Made by a program: the position numbers and the translations under genes. Below are positions 824 through 31,790 of a DNA stretch of 32,000 nt, piece after piece; position 1 is the first letter of the stretch; every line of letters starts with the position of its first letter. Source of the DNA: Promethearchaeota archaeon. Its GTDB lineage: Archaea > Asgardarchaeota > Lokiarchaeia > Sigyniarchaeales > Promethearchaeaceae. Below the pieces are notes generated by a model. It was not told the DNA's origin. It made no database searches and was given only the letters and a program-made list of their open reading frames with translations. The stretch is from assembly GCA_016933055.1 (NCBI GenBank), contig JAFGBS010000028.1, forward strand, positions 180,001-212,000, in the 5' to 3' direction.

Positions 824-3004
824 ATGCCTAAAGAAAAATGGATAATTACCTCTGCGTGGCCTTATGTTAATGCTACTCCTCATCTGGGCAACATAATCGG
901 TAGTGTATTAAGTGGAGATGTTTTTGCTCGATTTCTTCGACTCCAGAAAAATACTGAAGTTTTATACGTTTCTGGTAGTGATATGCATGGTACACCCGTA
1001 GCTGTGGATGCTATCAAGAAAGGGATTACATCTGAAGAATTAGCGTATTCCAAACATGAAGACATCGTGAAATTATTTTCAGATTGGAATTTACAATATG
1101 ATAATTATACTCAAACCCACAATCCCACCCATATTAAATTCACCCAAGATTTTTATTTGGAAATCCAAAAGAATGGATATATTATTGAGGAAGAAACCGA
1201 AGGTTACTACTGTCCCGAAGATGATTTCTTCTTACCGGACCGTTTCATTGAGGGCACATGCCCCTATTGTGGGCAATCAGGTGCTCGAGGGGACCAGTGT
1301 GATAATCCCTCATGTGGGCGAGTTCTAGAATCAAACCAATTATTAAACCCCGAATGTAAAATATGTCTCCTAAAGAACAAACACACAACACCCATCCGAA
1401 AAAAAACTAAACATTGGTATTTGGATTTTCCTCAATTGGAAGACAAATTACGAGATTTTATAGTTAATAATCATTATATCAATCCAAATGCTAAAACATT
1501 ATGCTTAAATTCCATCAAAGAAGGACTTCCTCGTCGATCAATAACCAGAGATCTGAAATGGGGGATACCAGCTCCTTTCGAAGGAGCTGAAAATAAGACA
1601 ATTTATGTTTGGTTTGAAGCAGTTCTTGGGTATATCTCAGCGGTTAAAGAATGGGCGCAAATTAAAGAACAACCAGACTTATTTGATTACTACTGGAAGG
1701 ATCCTAAAACTAAATCTGTGTATTTCATTGGTAAAGATAATATTATTTTCCACTGGATTATTTTTCCTGGTCTAATATTTGCATACAATAAAGGAAAATC
1801 TATTGAAGATCAATTAACTCTTCCGTATAATGTAAGTAGTACTGAATTCTTAATGTATGAAAATGATAAATTTTCTAAAAGTCGAGGGATAGGAATATGG
1901 GCTGATGAAGCATTAGAGCTCCTTCCTGCAGATTATTGGAGATATGCGCTAATACGAAATCGTCCAGAGGGAAGGGATGTATCTTTTATTTGGAACGAAT
2001 TTGAAAATTCAATAAATGAGCTCAATGACAAGATAGGTAACTTTATTCATCGGACTTTTACTTTCATATACAACAAATTCGACGCACAAATACCTGGAAT
2101 TGTAGATCTTGATGATGATGATCGGGAGATCTTGAATTTAATAGAGAGAGCCCCCAAAGAAATAGGAGAACTCTTTTTGAATTATCGATTAAAGGATGCA
2201 GTATCTAAAATCGTGGATATCGCTACGAAAGGAAATGTTTATCTAAATACAAAAAAGCCCTGGAGCGTAATTAGGACCGATAAAGAGAAGGCAGGTCAAA
2301 TTTTCAACATATGTGCTCAGTTAAGTAAAACGTTGGGAATTTTGTTAGCTCCTATTTGCCCAGATGCGTTCAAAACCATAATAAAAATAACAAATTTAAG
2401 AAAAGCCCCTCAAGAAATTCTTTGGGATGATATCTCAAGTCTTGAAGTGAAAACTGGAACCAAAATCGGTAAACCGATTCCAGTTTTCAAGAAATTTAAA
2501 CTTAACGACATGCTAAGAGATTTCAAAGATATTCGCGAATCAAAGGGACAAAAATTCACTCTACCTAACTCGTTAATTAACTTAAAAGACGATTCCCTAC
2601 AGGAAAAATCTCAAGAAGGTGATAAAATAAAAAATGAAGCGAATCATATAACCTACAAATTCTTCCAGAAATTTCTTTTTAAAACTGCACGAATTGTAAA
2701 TATAGATCGTGTGCAAAAAACTTCAAAAGAAATGAATAAAGAAACCTTATATGAGTTTACCTTATCAATAGGACGAAATATCACCAATAAGACATATTAT
2801 GTTAATACAAGTGAATCCATCGAACAACTACGAAAATATATCGGGAAGGATGTTGTGTATTTAGCAAATTTAGAAAAAATCCCCGATTCTGTAAAAAAAA
2901 TCAAAAACCAAAGTATTCTGATTATGCATGCGATGAATAATACAGATACGATTTCACTGATAATTGTCGATAAATTTGTACCCTTAGGGAGTCTTATTCG
3001 CTAA
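824..3004 (+). CDS. metG: Methionyl-tRNA synthetase with zinc knuckles and a divergent C-terminal tRNA-binding/dimerisation domain
   Basis: WPYVNATPHLGN (HIGH), GSDMHG, CPxC/CxxC knuckles, SITRDLKWGIPAP, YVWFEA, FIGKDNIIFH, KFSKS (KMSKS). Confidence 0.97.
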   Translation: MPKEKWIITSAWPYVNATPHLGNIIGSVLSGDVFARFLRLQKNTEVLYVSGSDMHGTPVAVDAIKKGITSEELAYSKHEDIVKLFSDWNLQYDNYTQTHNPTHIKFTQDFYLEIQKNGYIIEEETEGYYCPEDDFFLPDRFIEGTCPYCGQSGARGDQCDNPSCGRVLESNQLLNPECKICLLKNKHTTPIRKKTKHWYLDFPQLEDKLRDFIVNNHYINPNAKTLCLNSIKEGLPRRSITRDLKWGIPAPFEGAENKTIYVWFEAVLGYISAVKEWAQIKEQPDLFDYYWKDPKTKSVYFIGKDNIIFHWIIFPGLIFAYNKGKSIEDQLTLPYNVSSTEFLMYENDKFSKSRGIGIWADEALELLPADYWRYALIRNRPEGRDVSFIWNEFENSINELNDKIGNFIHRTFTFIYNKFDAQIPGIVDLDDDDREILNLIERAPKEIGELFLNYRLKDAVSKIVDIATKGNVYLNTKKPWSVIRTDKEKAGQIFNICAQLSKTLGILLAPICPDAFKTIIKITNLRKAPQEILWDDISSLEVKTGTKIGKPIPVFKKFKLNDMLRDFKDIRESKGQKFTLPNSLINLKDDSLQEKSQEGDKIKNEANHITYKFFQKFLFKTARIVNIDRVQKTSKEMNKETLYEFTLSIGRNITNKTYYVNTSESIEQLRKYIGKDVVYLANLEKIPDSVKKIKNQSILIMHAMNNTDTISLIIVDKFVPLGSLIR

Positions 3005-4979: not shown

Positions 4980-5567
4980 ATGCCGTCAATCATTAATTCT
5001 GACTTTGAATCTCTACCTGAAAGTTATCAAGAATATATTGTGACTATTTATCGTCTTTCATCCAAAACGAAAAAAGTAACAAATATTGATATATCGAATA
5101 AAATGGGAAATGCTCCTTCCTCAGTCTACAATATGTTAAAGAAATTAGCAAGCCGAAAATTGATCCAATGGGAACCCAAACAAAAAGAAATACTTTTGAC
5201 AACTAAGGGAAAACGAATAGCTAAACAGCTTATTTTGAGTCATTTAATCATGGAATTGTTTCTTAGGGAGTATTTGGGATTAATAGATGATGATCAAATT
5301 CATAACCTTGCTTGTAAATTAGAACATCATGTTACTGAACCAATAAAACAAGGATTTCGTAGAAAGATTGGTGAAGAAGCCTATAAAAATTTAGAAGTTA
5401 TTGTTGAAATGGAATCAGACCCTGAAAGTACCATCAAAAGATTAAAAGAAGTATTTCCCAGCCCGAAACAAGTCGTTTCACGATTTGCTCGCAAACTAAA
5501 GAAACTAATGCCGGAATCTGAGGAAAGAATTGAAATAATAAAAACCGAATTCCTTGAAAATCTTTAA
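4980..5567 (+). CDS. DtxR/MntR-family metal-dependent transcriptional regulator
   Basis: QEYIVTIY, HTH region (ISNKMGNAPSSVYNMLKKL), LTTKG, HLIMELFL, ACKLEHHVTE. Confidence 0.9.
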   Translation: MPSIINSDFESLPESYQEYIVTIYRLSSKTKKVTNIDISNKMGNAPSSVYNMLKKLASRKLIQWEPKQKEILLTTKGKRIAKQLILSHLIMELFLREYLGLIDDDQIHNLACKLEHHVTEPIKQGFRRKIGEEAYKNLEVIVEMESDPESTIKRLKEVFPSPKQVVSRFARKLKKLMPESEERIEIIKTEFLENL

Positions 5568-6472
5568 TCTCGTAGAAATTTTCCCATTACAAAATCTTTC
5601 CAGTCCCTTCCAATCATAAAAACTCCTAATAATAACAAAAACAATCCTGTCACTTTATCTAGGTAATTCCAGATGCCCTCTGCGTTAAGAACTAATAAAA
5701 TACCTCCAATTGTAAGTAACATACCAATGAAAGTTTCGTGCAGATGAATTTTTTTAATATAAATTCGTTTGAATCCTGTTGCAGCAAGAGATTTTATGAA
5801 ATCTGGACAGCGAAGTAAAAAATATACCAGAAGAAAGGTGACACTTGCATTTATAATGAAATAGGCTTCATCTGTACTCAAATAATTCGCGTAGTATACA
5901 GAGGAAAATGCAAATGGGGAAATTCTGAAAAACACCCAAAGAATGCTTAGAATTGAAAGAAGTGCTCCAACATTGGCAATTTTTAAAATTATTTTAAATA
6001 CACCCTTTCGTCGATATAAATCTTCCAAGGAGTAAAAACCAGTTTTGGGAACGAACTTTTCAGGGTTATAAACTAAATTTCCTAATTCATCTTTCTCTGA
6101 ATTTACATGTAAGATATCATCATGGATGATTACAATATGAGTCAAATTTTCTTTATCTTTACGTTTTATGATGGAGTTATGCAGAAGCATCGAAAAAAAT
6201 GACGCTAGAAAAACTCCAATAATTATCAGGATAAAAATGACTCTGAATGTGTAATTGTATTTTATAGATAAATAAAATTCATCTAATTTATTATGATCTA
6301 TCCAACTTCCAGGACCGGGTATATAATGTCGCCAATTATCTCCAATACGCAAAATTGCATAAAGATATACTAGGAAAATTGCCGTAAACAACAATGTAAG
6401 ACCAACAGTCATAAATACTCGCGAAACAAATGATTTAGATCGGATCTGTTTATTAGGGATCTGAGTATCCAT
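5564..6472 (-). CDS. Hypothetical multi-pass membrane protein
   Basis: 302-aa ORF with about six hydrophobic segments. It starts 12 bp after the stop of the upstream KaiC-V4R gene. Confidence 0.8.
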   Translation of the reverse strand: MDTQIPNKQIRSKSFVSRVFMTVGLTLLFTAIFLVYLYAILRIGDNWRHYIPGPGSWIDHNKLDEFYLSIKYNYTFRVIFILIIIGVFLASFFSMLLHNSIIKRKDKENLTHIVIIHDDILHVNSEKDELGNLVYNPEKFVPKTGFYSLEDLYRRKGVFKIILKIANVGALLSILSILWVFFRISPFAFSSVYYANYLSTDEAYFIINASVTFLLVYFLLRCPDFIKSLAATGFKRIYIKKIHLHETFIGMLLTIGGILLVLNAEGIWNYLDKVTGLFLLLLGVFMIGRDWKDFVMGKFLRD

Positions 6473-6484
6473 TTAATCCACCAA

Positions 6485-7762
6485 TTAGACTAGTAGCAGC
6501 AAAATATTCAATGTTATAAAACCATTTTGCATATTACCTTGTTTTTTCATTTCGATATGTTTCACGTCGAATTTTAAGCTTTGGGACATAATTCCAGAAT
6601 AAAGTCCCTTCAGAATAGGACGATATATTTCTTCATCCAATTCTTCATGAAACGCATGAGTATACTCGATTATTTTTTGGGAGATGTCTTTTTTAATCAA
6701 TTTACTTTGACCCCATCCGAGTAAAGACCATATTCGTAAAGTAGTTTTAACTACTTCCCACCGATTAATCATATATAGTTTCTGAATAAATGCACTGAGA
6801 TCTGAACCTATTGTGAAGGCTGTTTGTTGAATAATAGTAGCATCTTTAATCTTTTTTAAGAAATGAATCCAGCTTTGGGTAGGAAGTAGTAAAAAGGGAA
6901 TATGAGAAAACTCTAAAGTCCCGTTTTCCCATTCCATTAAATTACGGAAAGCTTCGAATGTATTTAGAAAAGCAGATTTTATGATAACAGAATATTGCTC
7001 CGTTTGTTCATCAAACTGTATTTTATAAGGTTCTACGCGGTTATCGTGGGGATACTGCCCCACCATCTTTAGAACCCGAATATACTGTTGCTGATAAATT
7101 CCCTCAAATTTAGAACTCAAATCCACAACCACATGGCATAGTGATTGAATTTTTGCCAACATTTCAGATGGAACAATATCCTTATTCATTAACATTAGAT
7201 CACAAGACCCCGTATCACAGCATGATGTGAGATTACCTTCAATCAGTTGAATAACGTTAGAAACCGATAAATTAAGAATAAATGGATTTACACTAATTAA
7301 GATATTATATAATTGGATGGAAGGATCATTTTCATCAATGCGTCTTTGGTTTAAATAATCCATTGCTTTCTCTTTTGCATTTCGAATCTGAAGAGACAAT
7401 TCATGCCTATCGGTAAATAAATTTACATTCTGGACTCCCTTACTTACTAAATCAAGTATAATAAGGTTAGGATTTGGATAGACCTCTTGTATCGAAAGTA
7501 TCAAATTTCGCGAAATCATATCTGATAAAATAACCAGCACAACATTAGAAACTGAAATTTGATTTTCGATAATTTCTTTTAAAATTATTTCTCCTCCACT
7601 ACCAATATCTTGTTGAAATAAGGTCAAACTATTGCTTTGGAATCCCCCCCCAAGCATTTCATCCAATTCACGAATACCACTAGAAAAGAATCGCTTTTTC
7701 TCAAGGATTTTTCGTTTTTGAAGGGTCGAATCCGCTAGTTTTTCTTGAACTCGTCTACTCAT
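6485..7762 (-). CDS. Inactivated KaiC/RAD55-like ATPase fused to a V4R-like C-terminal domain
   Basis: SSGIRELDEMLGGGF is the RecA-superfamily KaiC/RAD55 start. Walker A is degenerate (DIGSGGE), and LCHVVVDL and VLKMVG correspond to DGVIEL and KMRG. The C-terminal region has GTLEFSHIPFLLLP, IGSDLS and LLGWGQ, as in V4R-type domains. Confidence 0.75.
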   Translation of the reverse strand: MSRRVQEKLADSTLQKRKILEKKRFFSSGIRELDEMLGGGFQSNSLTLFQQDIGSGGEIILKEIIENQISVSNVVLVILSDMISRNLILSIQEVYPNPNLIILDLVSKGVQNVNLFTDRHELSLQIRNAKEKAMDYLNQRRIDENDPSIQLYNILISVNPFILNLSVSNVIQLIEGNLTSCCDTGSCDLMLMNKDIVPSEMLAKIQSLCHVVVDLSSKFEGIYQQQYIRVLKMVGQYPHDNRVEPYKIQFDEQTEQYSVIIKSAFLNTFEAFRNLMEWENGTLEFSHIPFLLLPTQSWIHFLKKIKDATIIQQTAFTIGSDLSAFIQKLYMINRWEVVKTTLRIWSLLGWGQSKLIKKDISQKIIEYTHAFHEELDEEIYRPILKGLYSGIMSQSLKFDVKHIEMKKQGNMQNGFITLNILLLLV

Positions 7763-8310
7763 GGTATTTGACTTCCTTTTATTTTATTAAGCACATCCAT
7801 GGAAATTTCTTCAAATACTTGGTCCATATTGGTTCCTGTTTTTGCTGAAGTAATATAAAATCGTATGTTTGGATTTTCTGGACGTAATTGTTTTGTAAGA
7901 TCCATGGCAATTACTTCGATGTTAGGATTATAATCAAGATCACATTTGTTACCGATTATCGATATAGGTACGGTCTTTCCCAATACACGAGTAACATCCA
8001 TATACCAATCACGGATATGCAGTAATGAGGATTTGTTGGTTAAGTCGAATAATAGAAGCACACCTTGAGCCCCATTCAAGTAATTAGAGCGTACAGTCGC
8101 CCATAAAGTCTGGCCTCCAATATCCCAAATTGTCATGATTACCTCCTTAGTTTGACCACAAATATCCACACGCATTGTTTTTCCTTTGAAGTCCACACCT
8201 ATTGTTGAAAGATAGTTTTCCTTGAAATATCCTTCTGTATAATGCCGAACCAATGAAGTTTTTCCAACCGAGGGGTCTCCTAAGATACAGACTTTTATTT
8301 TCATAGCCAT
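7759..8310 (-). CDS. Rab/Ras-like small GTPase
   Basis: G1 GDPSVGKTS, G2 STIGVDF, G3 WDIGGQ, G4 NKCD, G5 TSAK. No C-terminal cysteine. The stop overlaps the next start (ATGA). Confidence 0.95.
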   Translation of the reverse strand: MAMKIKVCILGDPSVGKTSLVRHYTEGYFKENYLSTIGVDFKGKTMRVDICGQTKEVIMTIWDIGGQTLWATVRSNYLNGAQGVLLLFDLTNKSSLLHIRDWYMDVTRVLGKTVPISIIGNKCDLDYNPNIEVIAMDLTKQLRPENPNIRFYITSAKTGTNMDQVFEEISMDVLNKIKGSQIP

Positions 8311-8373
8311 TTTATTCTACCTTCATCGTGATATTTCCCAATAAGTGCTATATTCGATCCATCCTACTTTAAT

Positions 8374-8494
8374 CTATGAGTTTTTAGGTTGGAATTCATT
8401 ATAGCTAGCAATCGGAATAAAACAGATCCATATGATTAATCTCATGGACTAGATTTATATGGATCTACTTGATTATCAACTCATAGGATATCCT
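8374..8494. repeat. Nested inverted repeats and a palindrome in a divergent intergenic region
   Basis: CTATGAGTT (8374-8382) / AACTCATAG (8478-8486) enclose AGATCCATAT (8424-8433) / ATATGGATCT (8457-8466). A perfect palindrome AGGATATCCT lies at 8485-8494. Confidence 0.5.
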
Positions 8495-8520
8495 TAATTT
8501 ATAATAAACGGGGCAACAAA

Positions 8521-9213
8521 ATGCCAAAAAACGCGAAAGCTCAAGAGAAATTGGAAAACATAATTATTTCTTTACGGGACGGTCTTAGTGAATTCGCTTC
8601 TCTAATAGAAGATATAAATAAATCCAGTTCTATGTTGCTGAAATTGTTCAGTAAAACCGAAAAAGAACTCAAAAGCATAAAATTGGACCGAGGGACCCAT
8701 GCTGTAACATCAACAGCAACACCAGCTGCACCTATTGTTGGAATTAAATCTGGACAAGATGCTCGCGAAAAAGCCGCTAATTTATTGTTTAACATGCTAT
8801 CAGGAGGAACAAGTGGAGCAGAATCACCGGCAACTTCAACGGTTTCTGCACATCCTTCAAGCCCCCCCTTAAGATCGGGGCCTCCTAGCTCATCATCGGG
8901 TCCTCCGGGTAGACCCCCCTCAGCACCCCCAAGTGCTCCTGCAAAATCTCCTTCTGGATTACCCCCTCCTCCAAAATTACCTCCTAAAGCTCCAGGGATA
9001 CCAACACCGGGTGTATCAACTCAGCCTTCATTTATGAAAGCTCCTCCTGGAATGAGTCCACCTCCCTCAAAACCTGGAGCACCTATGACCGCAGGATCTC
9101 CTCCCGCAGCTCCAGTAGCAGCTGGAGGTGGAGGTGGAGCTGGATTATCCTCTTTACGAGATGAAATGTTAAAAGAATTAGATCGTCTTAAGAAAATCAT
9201 GAAAGGCGGCTAA
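8521..9213 (+). CDS. Coiled-coil / proline-rich protein with a C-terminal amphipathic helix (WH2-, VASP- or MIM1-like)
   Basis: N-terminal heptad-like helix, a long Pro/Ser/Ala/Gly linker (LPPPP and multiple PxxP), a Gly5 hinge, then LSSLRDEMLKELDRLKKIMKGG. Confidence 0.8.
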   Translation: MPKNAKAQEKLENIIISLRDGLSEFASLIEDINKSSSMLLKLFSKTEKELKSIKLDRGTHAVTSTATPAAPIVGIKSGQDAREKAANLLFNMLSGGTSGAESPATSTVSAHPSSPPLRSGPPSSSSGPPGRPPSAPPSAPAKSPSGLPPPPKLPPKAPGIPTPGVSTQPSFMKAPPGMSPPPSKPGAPMTAGSPPAAPVAAGGGGGAGLSSLRDEMLKELDRLKKIMKGG

Positions 9214-9446: not shown

Positions 9447-10064
9447 ATGGTAGAATTCGAAAATGAGGAATTCATATTTCGTATGATTTTAATTGGCATC
9501 TATTCGATTTTTACCATAATAAGAATTCGATATAGACGAATCGCGAAAAACAACGGTGTTATTAAGGAAAAAGATAATGCTACCCAAAAATTGCTGTTTG
9601 CCATGATGGCTTATGAGGTTTTGACTTTTATTGCTTTTGTGTTTTTGTACAATTGGATTCCATGGGAAATAGCTCATATTCCCTTTCCTTTATGGCTCAG
9701 ATGGATGGGATTACCATTAGGTCTAGGCGCTATCGTGTATTTTATCATAGTCCATGAAGCTTTGGGAAAGAATTTCTCTCCTAAGCTGCGTATCAAAAAG
9801 GAACAAACACTCATTACTCATGGTCCTTACAAACACATACGTCATCCAATGTATGTAGCGTTTTTTCTCCTTCATCTAGCAGTATTTTTCATCGTAGCGA
9901 ATTGGATCATTGGGATTTCATGGAATATTTTTTTGTTCACAATTATTGCTATTCGTGTAAAACCTGAAGAAAAACTAATGATCGAGCGTTTTGGTAAGGA
10001 ATATGAAGAATACATAGAAAGAACAAGAAGATTTTTACCCATAAAGAAGAAAACAAGAATCTGA
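9447..10064 (+). CDS. Isoprenylcysteine carboxylmethyltransferase (ICMT/Ste14/PEMT)-family membrane methyltransferase
   Basis: Five or six transmembrane segments, LITHGPYKHIRHPMY, EEKLMIERFGKEYEEY, RRFLP. Confidence 0.9.
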   Translation: MVEFENEEFIFRMILIGIYSIFTIIRIRYRRIAKNNGVIKEKDNATQKLLFAMMAYEVLTFIAFVFLYNWIPWEIAHIPFPLWLRWMGLPLGLGAIVYFIIVHEALGKNFSPKLRIKKEQTLITHGPYKHIRHPMYVAFFLLHLAVFFIVANWIIGISWNIFLFTIIAIRVKPEEKLMIERFGKEYEEYIERTRRFLPIKKKTRI

Positions 10065-12304: not shown

Positions 12305-12571
12305 ATGGCCAAGAAAGAATTGTTCATCAAAAGAGTGTATGAAATCGTTAATGAACTTAAGATTCCCTTAATTGACGAACGCGTTTATCATAAAGTCGAC
12401 CTTAATGAAGCGAGAGTAACCACCAACGTAAGTTTCCGATTCGAAGAGGATGAAAGTGTTATTCGAGGATTCCTCGGTCTGGCAGAATATTTCCATACTG
12501 TAGTTATCAAGCGAAAAGAACGGTTTTACATCCCTAATGGTGCAACCCTATTCAAATTAGAGAGCTCCTAA
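12305..12571 (+). CDS. Small hypothetical protein (88 aa)
   Basis: MAKKELFIKRVYEIV...GFLGLAEYFHTVVIK. Globular composition. ATG at 12305 is preferred over TTG at 12293. Confidence 0.7.
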   Translation: MAKKELFIKRVYEIVNELKIPLIDERVYHKVDLNEARVTTNVSFRFEEDESVIRGFLGLAEYFHTVVIKRKERFYIPNGATLFKLESS

Positions 12572-31175: not shown

Positions 31176-31790
31176 GTGATGATCATGGAAGATTTAGGTA
31201 ATTTATCTTATAATAATGGAAAAAAATGCCTAGTTGTCTCCAAAAAAATCATCATCTTAGGAGAAGGGGGTACAGGTAAAACAACCTTGCTCCTTCGATA
31301 TACTACAGGAAAGTTTTCTGAAGATACAAAAATGACAGTTGGTTCGGACTTTTTTGTGAAGAAAATTAAGTTTGAACACGGCAATTGCGATGTATATTTG
31401 AAACTCTTGTTATGGGATTTTGCAGGGGAAGCACGATTTCGCTTCTTGTTAAGCGATTATACACGGGGAAGCGATATAATATTAGTTGCTTTTGATTTAT
31501 CGCGTATGAAATCTATTTATCATCTTGTAGATTGGATGGAAGTACTTGAATCGGCTCGAACCTACCAAAATAAAACACCTATCTACTTGATTGGAAATAA
31601 ATACGATCTAGTGCAAAAATATCAAGAACCTGATTATGAGTATATTAATAAATGGATTCATGATTATCACGTATCCAAATATTTTGAAACCTCTTCTAGA
31701 ACTGGATATAATGTTGAAGAATTGTTTTGTGATATCACCCGTACTTTAATCGAAAATTCCAAACAAAAAGCTTCATTCTTATGGATATAA
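31176..31790 (+). CDS. Rab/Ras-like small GTPase
   Basis: G1 GEGGTGKTT, G2 MTVGSDF, G3 WDFAGE, G4 NKYD, G5 ETSSR. The start may be ATG 31179 or 31185. Confidence 0.95.
   Translation: MMIMEDLGNLSYNNGKKCLVVSKKIIILGEGGTGKTTLLLRYTTGKFSEDTKMTVGSDFFVKKIKFEHGNCDVYLKLLLWDFAGEARFRFLLSDYTRGSDIILVAFDLSRMKSIYHLVDWMEVLESARTYQNKTPIYLIGNKYDLVQKYQEPDYEYINKWIHDYHVSKYFETSSRTGYNVEELFCDITRTLIENSKQKASFLWI

Follow-up and report, generated by a model that had tools for sequence, protein, structure and literature searches.

A GTPase unit and a proline-arm adaptor unit at a divergent junction in a Promethearchaeota genome

Layout of the locus and its spacer

The locus analyzed here lies in 32,000 nucleotides of a Promethearchaeota archaeon genome (GCA_016933055.1, contig JAFGBS010000028.1, positions 180,001 to 212,000), referred to below as the window, in which the gene of a Rab/Ras-like small GTPase and the gene of a polyproline protein, here called the proline-arm adaptor, face away from each other. 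In the original prediction, this arrangement was proposed to define a GTPase-to-cytoskeleton signaling module. The comparison with related loci suggests that, probably, two independently inherited units meet here at one inherited rearrangement junction in a single Lokiarchaeia branch, namely the GTPase with a dead-KaiC/V4R partner on one side and the adaptor with a small companion on the other.

On the minus strand, the GTPase gene (183 amino acids (AA), 7759-8310) is followed by the gene of the dead KaiC/FlaH-like and V4R protein (425 AA, 6485-7762), whose start overlaps the GTPase stop in the sequence ATGA at 7759-7762, and by an open reading frame (ORF) for a membrane protein (302 AA, 5564-6472) with about six hydrophobic segments and no family. 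Beyond a single divergent intergenic spacer of 210 bp (8311-8520), the adaptor gene (230 AA, 8521-9213) runs on the plus strand and encodes a helical base, a proline arm and an end helix (9154-9201). These four ORFs and the spacer between them had been described correctly from the start. The 88-AA companion gene (12305-12571, plus strand), which belongs to no known family, lies 3 kb downstream of the adaptor.

The dyad symmetry that had been attributed to the spacer exists in the form of an imperfect inverted repeat (8416-8433 with 8457-8474), but it is weak. Its strength was equalled by 3 of 300 and 5 of 100 shuffled sequences as well as in 6 of 84 comparable divergent spacers of the same genome, and the folding of the whole spacer is at chance level (z=-0.47). 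The repeat is not conserved, its arms being broken even in relatives of the same genus. Spacer sequences are similar within the genus only, beyond which their resemblance is no better than that of shuffles, and in one related locus (L239) the spacer measures 1.26 kb and contains an inserted ORF. A scan for sigma-70 promoters, which are the wrong promoter type here, remained at chance level. Since about 19 % of the adjacent gene pairs in this genome are divergent (502 of 2608) and 44 of its ORFs carry a small GTPase domain, facing a GTPase gene is not rare.

The GTPase and its dead-KaiC/V4R partner

The 183-AA protein matches the Ras domain (PF00071, E=1e-40), and its motifs G1 to G5 are intact and conserved across 14 orthologs, none of which has a cysteine for prenylation within the last 10 residues. 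In the partner, residues of about 25 to 240 form a RecA fold of the KaiC/FlaH type, with matches to FlaH (Foldseek E=2.5e-10) and PH0321 (VIA Z 16.5, root-mean-square deviation (rmsd) 3.0, 197 aligned residues). The position of the Walker A lysine is taken by Gly, Ala or Cys in 30/30 homologs, and the domain lacks the Walker B acids. Residues of about 291 to 425 adopt a V4R fold, matching PoxR (Z 12.3, rmsd 3.1, 129 aligned residues) and DmpR (Z 11.9). This part is devoid of zinc cysteines, with no cysteine at all in 24 of the 30 homologs and at most two in the rest. Both halves of the name pseudo-ATPase/V4R, under which the protein was first listed, are borne out by this combination of a KaiC/FlaH fold with a dead site and a V4R domain. 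In a set of 400 Asgard genomes, the full-length protein was detected in 8, which all belong to one order, and about 30 further database proteins are homologs. Homologs in the databases bear the names Promethearchaeota or Lokiarchaeota, in keeping with an Asgard host.

Among the 15 loci with flanking sequence (G002 ends at a contig edge), the GTPase gene lies directly upstream of the KaiC/V4R gene in 14, either overlapping it or within about 60 bases. The GTPases associated in this way form one clade (support 100/100). When 61 genomes were searched with a profile of this clade, 256-282 bits were reached only in six genomes with an adjacent partner, while all others stayed at or below 189 bits, and none of the 54 genomes searched that lack the KaiC/V4R partner yielded a member of the clade. 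This gap is not an artifact of profile construction, since held-out orthologs still separate from paralogs (217-260 bits versus at most 170 bits). Based on the clade profile and the adjacency, the two genes have been retained or lost together among the searched genomes. They constitute a true two-gene unit, a rare matched pair of GTPase and putative regulator in Asgard archaea.

The membrane gene, originally placed in an operon with these two genes, is linked more loosely. It adjoins the pair in this genus only; an ACT-domain gene on the opposite strand separates it from the pair in G002, L237, L240 and L241, and it is absent from the flank in G003, G007, G014, G053, L238 and L242. The membrane protein is probably not part of the GTPase unit, and of the proposed operon only the pair stands.

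In functional terms, the pair could be a two-gene signaling switch composed of an active Rab-like GTPase and its dedicated dead-KaiC/V4R partner. It is quite likely that the partner interacts with the GTPase as its dedicated regulator, be it an exchange factor, an inhibitor or an effector. In the first two cases, it would bind the GTPase and set its nucleotide state; the V4R domain might then sense a ligand or offer a docking surface, and the dead KaiC domain might provide an oligomeric scaffold.

The kinds of parts in this unit are already known. Inactivated KaiC domains (iKaiC, DUF835, MEDS) have been presented as archaeal signaling hubs (Makarova et al. 2017, as cited in PMC5847659). As far as these hubs are portrayed in the citing paper, the 425-AA protein shares with them the KaiC/FlaH fold, the dead active site and a fused signaling domain, but differs in its fusion to V4R and its pairing with one Rab-like GTPase clade. 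A V4R-superfamily domain encoded together with a Rab-like GTPase also recalls the TRAPP complex (Bet3/TRAPPC3) with Rab1 and the Asgard TRAPPC3/V4R proteins (PMC10933270). However, the V4R part described here best matches the PoxR/DmpR sensors, has no zinc cysteines and is not accompanied by a longin subunit, which is catalytic in TRAPP. With MglA-MglB, the unit has in common that two genes encode a small GTPase and its dedicated partner, although this partner is dead-KaiC/V4R instead of roadblock and the GTPase is Rab-like. Asgard small GTPases are hard to assign to regulators and seldom share operons, and those of MK-D1 are generally not in operons with TRAPPC3/V4R-type genes (PMC10933270). 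One GTPase clade with one fixed partner of the V4R (Bet3) superfamily makes this regulator gap testable.

A related arrangement was observed in another Asgard class (L133, L134, L135 and L152), where a single-domain dead KaiC gene lies tail-to-tail with a gene for a Rab-like GTPase from a distinct clade; in two of these loci, a roadblock/longin-like gene precedes the pair.

The proline-arm adaptor and its end helix

The adaptor starts with an N-terminal amphipathic helix (about residues 1-55) and a short conserved helix (8761-8799), followed by the proline arm, with 34 prolines in residues 100-205 and a longest run of four, and by the end helix. It is single-copy and near-universal, the end motif being present in 145 of 161 genomes of the class, and relatives occur across the Asgard phylum, including Odinarchaeum (OdinLCB4_007640). 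Besides this soluble build, there is a membrane-anchored one with 1 to 11 hydrophobic segments, a helical hairpin, a proline arm and the same end helix. The membrane-anchored adaptors of L110, L118, L120, L121, L123 and L157, which include the short helical hairpin, usually lie adjacent to a ribose-5-phosphate isomerase-like gene; those of one class (L122) have 9-11 membrane segments, and in P0070 a TIR domain is fused to a complete adaptor of the soluble type that is anchored in the membrane.

The steadiest companion of the adaptor is the 88-AA gene, which is found beside it across Asgard classes in divergent, convergent and tandem orientation. It occurs in the families with soluble adaptors and is missing from most families of the membrane form; one genus has both. 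For its predicted structure (predicted local distance difference test 92), the best fold-search Z was 4.4, no Foldseek match with E<0.1 was obtained, and Atlas matches (TM up to 0.65) were to unnamed domains only. For the adaptor including its end helix, searches of Pfam, PDB and Atlas returned only generic coiled-coil matches. The 88-AA protein may well bind the base of the adaptor. The unit as a whole could be an Asgard-wide tether, in which a flexible proline arm connects a base with an end helix, the latter docking on a conserved partner. Its base would be a coiled coil, probably bound by the companion, and in other classes a membrane anchor.

Within the family to which this genome belongs, the gene opposite the adaptor is mostly that of adenylosuccinate synthetase. 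In 25 of 28 loci of the largest family, genes of a deacetylase and of an actin-related protein follow the adaptor gene. The phosphate loops of this actin-related protein are altered. It is specific to the order (L064:6695-8566; G000 C2:259697-261529), and its gene usually lies right behind that of the deacetylase, which is BshB1/PIG-L-like. As a universal partner of the end helix, this protein was rejected, because the helix is distributed phylum-wide. This genome's Lokiactin gene (L154:2908-4835) is followed on the same strand by the gene of a divergent small GTPase, and the gene of a 509-AA actin-related protein lies 2.7 kb from an MIT-domain Vps4-like gene (L155:3216-7963).

The end helix, with the near-invariant sequence L-R-[DEN]-E-M-L-x-E-L-x-R-L-K-K-I-M, is continuously amphipathic with invariant acidic residues and occurs in one copy in this genome. 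A search of 1.8 billion representatives yielded 84 proteins that contain it. Outside the adaptor, one to three copies precede a zinc-binding domain, in many cases with a Ras-like domain ahead of them, and the helix also terminates degenerate Rab-like proteins. Only 4 of 28 sampled GTPase-zinc fusions carry it, which indicates that it was grafted on sporadically. This marks the end helix as a portable, putative docking motif, the target of which would be useful to GTPase-type proteins. Fusions of the helix with Ras-like domains were seen in P0037, P0094, P0101, P0076, P0077, P0091, P0100, P0148 and P0149 as well as at L194:5001-6134 and L197:1480-2673, and two to three copies before the zinc domain in P0039, P0042 and P0078. 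The zinc-binding domain itself (CPxC..NH..GIPCCxC; L197-L226) is unnamed, lies mostly behind a small GTPase and, in the largest family, is present in 125 of 135 genomes; it was not found in this genome.

A WH2 motif consists of a helix, a link of about five residues and LKKT/V. The core of the end helix fits this motif, yet only two residues lead from the core to LKKI, and 22 adaptor members gave no PF02205 match up to an E-value of 10. The FAB peptide of VASP, taken as quoted in PMC10340426, aligns in register with the end helix, glycine run included. On the motif matrix, it is outscored by only 2-6 of about 1.05 million proteome windows, and its score was reached by 1-5 of 2000-3000 shuffles, in a comparison that was picked after the motif had been seen. 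The GAB peptide of VASP scored at chance level on the same matrix. A further FAB-like comparison is offered by the C helix of WASP-family factors. Of the targets considered, Lokiactin would be the most likely one, gripped as actin is by the VASP FAB or the C helix, although binding of the end helix to Lokiactin is proposed tentatively.

In its order of helical base, proline arm and terminal amphipathic helix, with a small GTPase encoded alongside and an actin-related gene adjoining it in one family, the adaptor is reminiscent of the Rho-GTPase/WASP/WAVE/Arp2/3 pathway. However, it differs from WASP, WAVE and WASH by the lack of CRIB, an acidic-Trp tail and canonical WH2 spacing, with neither a CRIB pattern nor a Trp found in the protein, and the GTPase lacks the prenylation cysteine and is absent from most adaptor-bearing genomes. 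The idea of a WASP/WAVE-type GTPase effector is not supported by these features. The adaptor resembles Ena/VASP in that its proline arm leads to a glycine run and then to L-x-[DE]-E-M-x-x-x-L-x-R-x-K, but it has no EVH1 (no Pfam match), no GAB/WH2 and no separate tetramer coil, and the likeness, which need not reflect homology, covers about 14 residues. No machinery for filament nucleation that uses polyproline is known from Asgard archaea (PMC9433394), and Asgard polyproline proteins are mentioned in general terms only (PMC8410842). With its 16-residue helix, which can be made as a peptide, the adaptor is a direct candidate for this nucleation gap.

The junction between the units and rival explanations

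The head-to-head order is present in seven loci (G000, G001, L237, L239, L241, L242 and L244) and absent in seven others (G003, G007, G014, G053, G191, L238 and L240). In species-representative genomes, the link is restricted to the genus, while metagenome contigs extend it further. In the KaiC/V4R tree, the linked loci fall into a single branch (84/92) and are therefore to be counted as one event; L243 belongs to this branch but has lost both neighbors. In G053, G191 and L240, the radical-SAM and rpL16 genes still accompany the pair without the adaptor being linked to it, and the background synteny is therefore equally deep. In about 95 % of the class genomes, the adaptor occurs without this GTPase ortholog, and a protein present in nine out of ten genomes cannot depend on a GTPase found in one out of twenty. 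The head-to-head order would go back to a single event in one branch of the order and have been passed on from there, like that of unrelated neighbors.

The divergent arrangement is thus conserved beyond the genus, but within a single branch and around a pair that few Asgard genomes contain. The co-regulated module of four parts put forward in the original prediction is not supported by these results: the adaptor mostly lives without this GTPase, one rearrangement joined the two sides, their spacers are unshared beyond the genus, and outside it the membrane gene is absent or separated from the pair. Gene order does not demonstrate a GTPase-to-cytoskeleton pathway.

Several observations nevertheless weigh against the reading of two separate units, one a switch and the other a tether docking on actin. 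L243 is the sole exception to the pairing, having a KaiC/V4R homolog without the GTPase, and the agreement between the GTPase and partner trees (rho 0.60) may just reflect shared descent. The head-to-head order is still kept where the KaiC/V4R proteins of linked loci are as low as 40-43 % identical, which could also be explained by weak selection. No actin-binding family was matched in profile searches of Pfam and PDB, and the FAB comparison, chosen after the fact, is a lead and not proof. The syntenic actin-related protein is confined to this order, and in this genome its gene and that of the deacetylase sit 71 kb from the adaptor. Finally, at least ten other proteins combine the end helix with Ras-like domains, most of which have broken P-loops. 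Part of this evidence suits other explanations. L243 and the strong general synteny of the region (radical SAM, rpL16) would be expected if the GTPase and KaiC/V4R genes were merely old neighbors without a common function. This is quite improbable, given that the genes overlap or abut in nearly all loci although their flanks change, that the GTPase clade was not found where the partner is missing, and that in another class a dead KaiC goes together with a different Rab-like GTPase. A doubtful but more serious alternative is that the end helix docks on a target other than actin, such as the MIT domain of Vps4, in a MIM1-like manner and with LPPxPKLPP as a MIM2-like element, or that it is an oligomerization helix. 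In that case, the adaptor would serve the endosomal sorting complexes required for transport (ESCRT) or another membrane machine. Its amphipathic character throughout and its invariant acidic residues, unlike WH2, the membrane-anchored forms in other classes and the lack of an actin-binding profile match are in line with this. MIM1 is characterized by an acidic residue and a subsequent L-x-x-R-L. The hydrophobic register of the end helix fits this consensus, but the charge pattern is not reproduced, since in this register the residue aligned with the Arg is a Glu. ESCRT genes were not neighbors of the adaptor in any locus read, and both the FAB likeness and the actin-related neighbor favor actin.

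A module limited to one clade has to be considered as well, in which, after the rearrangement, the GTPase came to regulate the adaptor, with both genes driven from a shared promoter, and to control the recruitment of actin. The seven head-to-head loci, the Ras-like fusions of the end helix and the co-purification of an Arf GTPase with Lokiactin (10.1101/2025.11.30.690169) are consistent with it. The fusions are the best indirect support for the idea first proposed, yet the fused GTPases belong to another clade than the neighboring one (at most 88 bits) and mostly have broken P-loops. The prevalence of adaptors without this GTPase, the single origin of the junction, the unconserved spacer with its insertion in L239, the lack of a CRIB-like motif and the abundance of GTPase genes in this genome argue against such a module. 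Both this module and a control of the adaptor by the neighboring GTPase are improbable. The most far-reaching proposal, which is very unlikely, would be that the end helix serves throughout Asgard archaea as a portable motif for docking on actin, either the ancestor of the VASP FAB and the WASP-family C helix or their analog, that it is carried on soluble or membrane arms and grafted onto small GTPases, and that in this clade the neighboring GTPase, gated by the dead-KaiC/V4R sensor, turns the adaptor on. If true, the adaptor would be the GTPase-controlled factor for filament nucleation or elongation that has been missing in Asgard archaea. The link between GTPase and adaptor is the most surprising proposal and the least supported part.

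Neither the pair of GTPase and KaiC/V4R protein nor the adaptor unit was found described in the literature searched, in which Makarova et al. 2017 is represented by a citing paper. Both units are regarded as undescribed, while inactivated KaiC domains, Asgard V4R/TRAPPC3 proteins and Rab-like GTPases are known as such.

Two further genes of the window were considered. An ICMT-like gene (9447-10064) was rejected as a part of the locus, as it is not retained in loci of the same genus. A second, unrelated small GTPase gene (31176-31790) lies behind a VWA-domain gene, and the same two genes adjoin the adaptor in L239.

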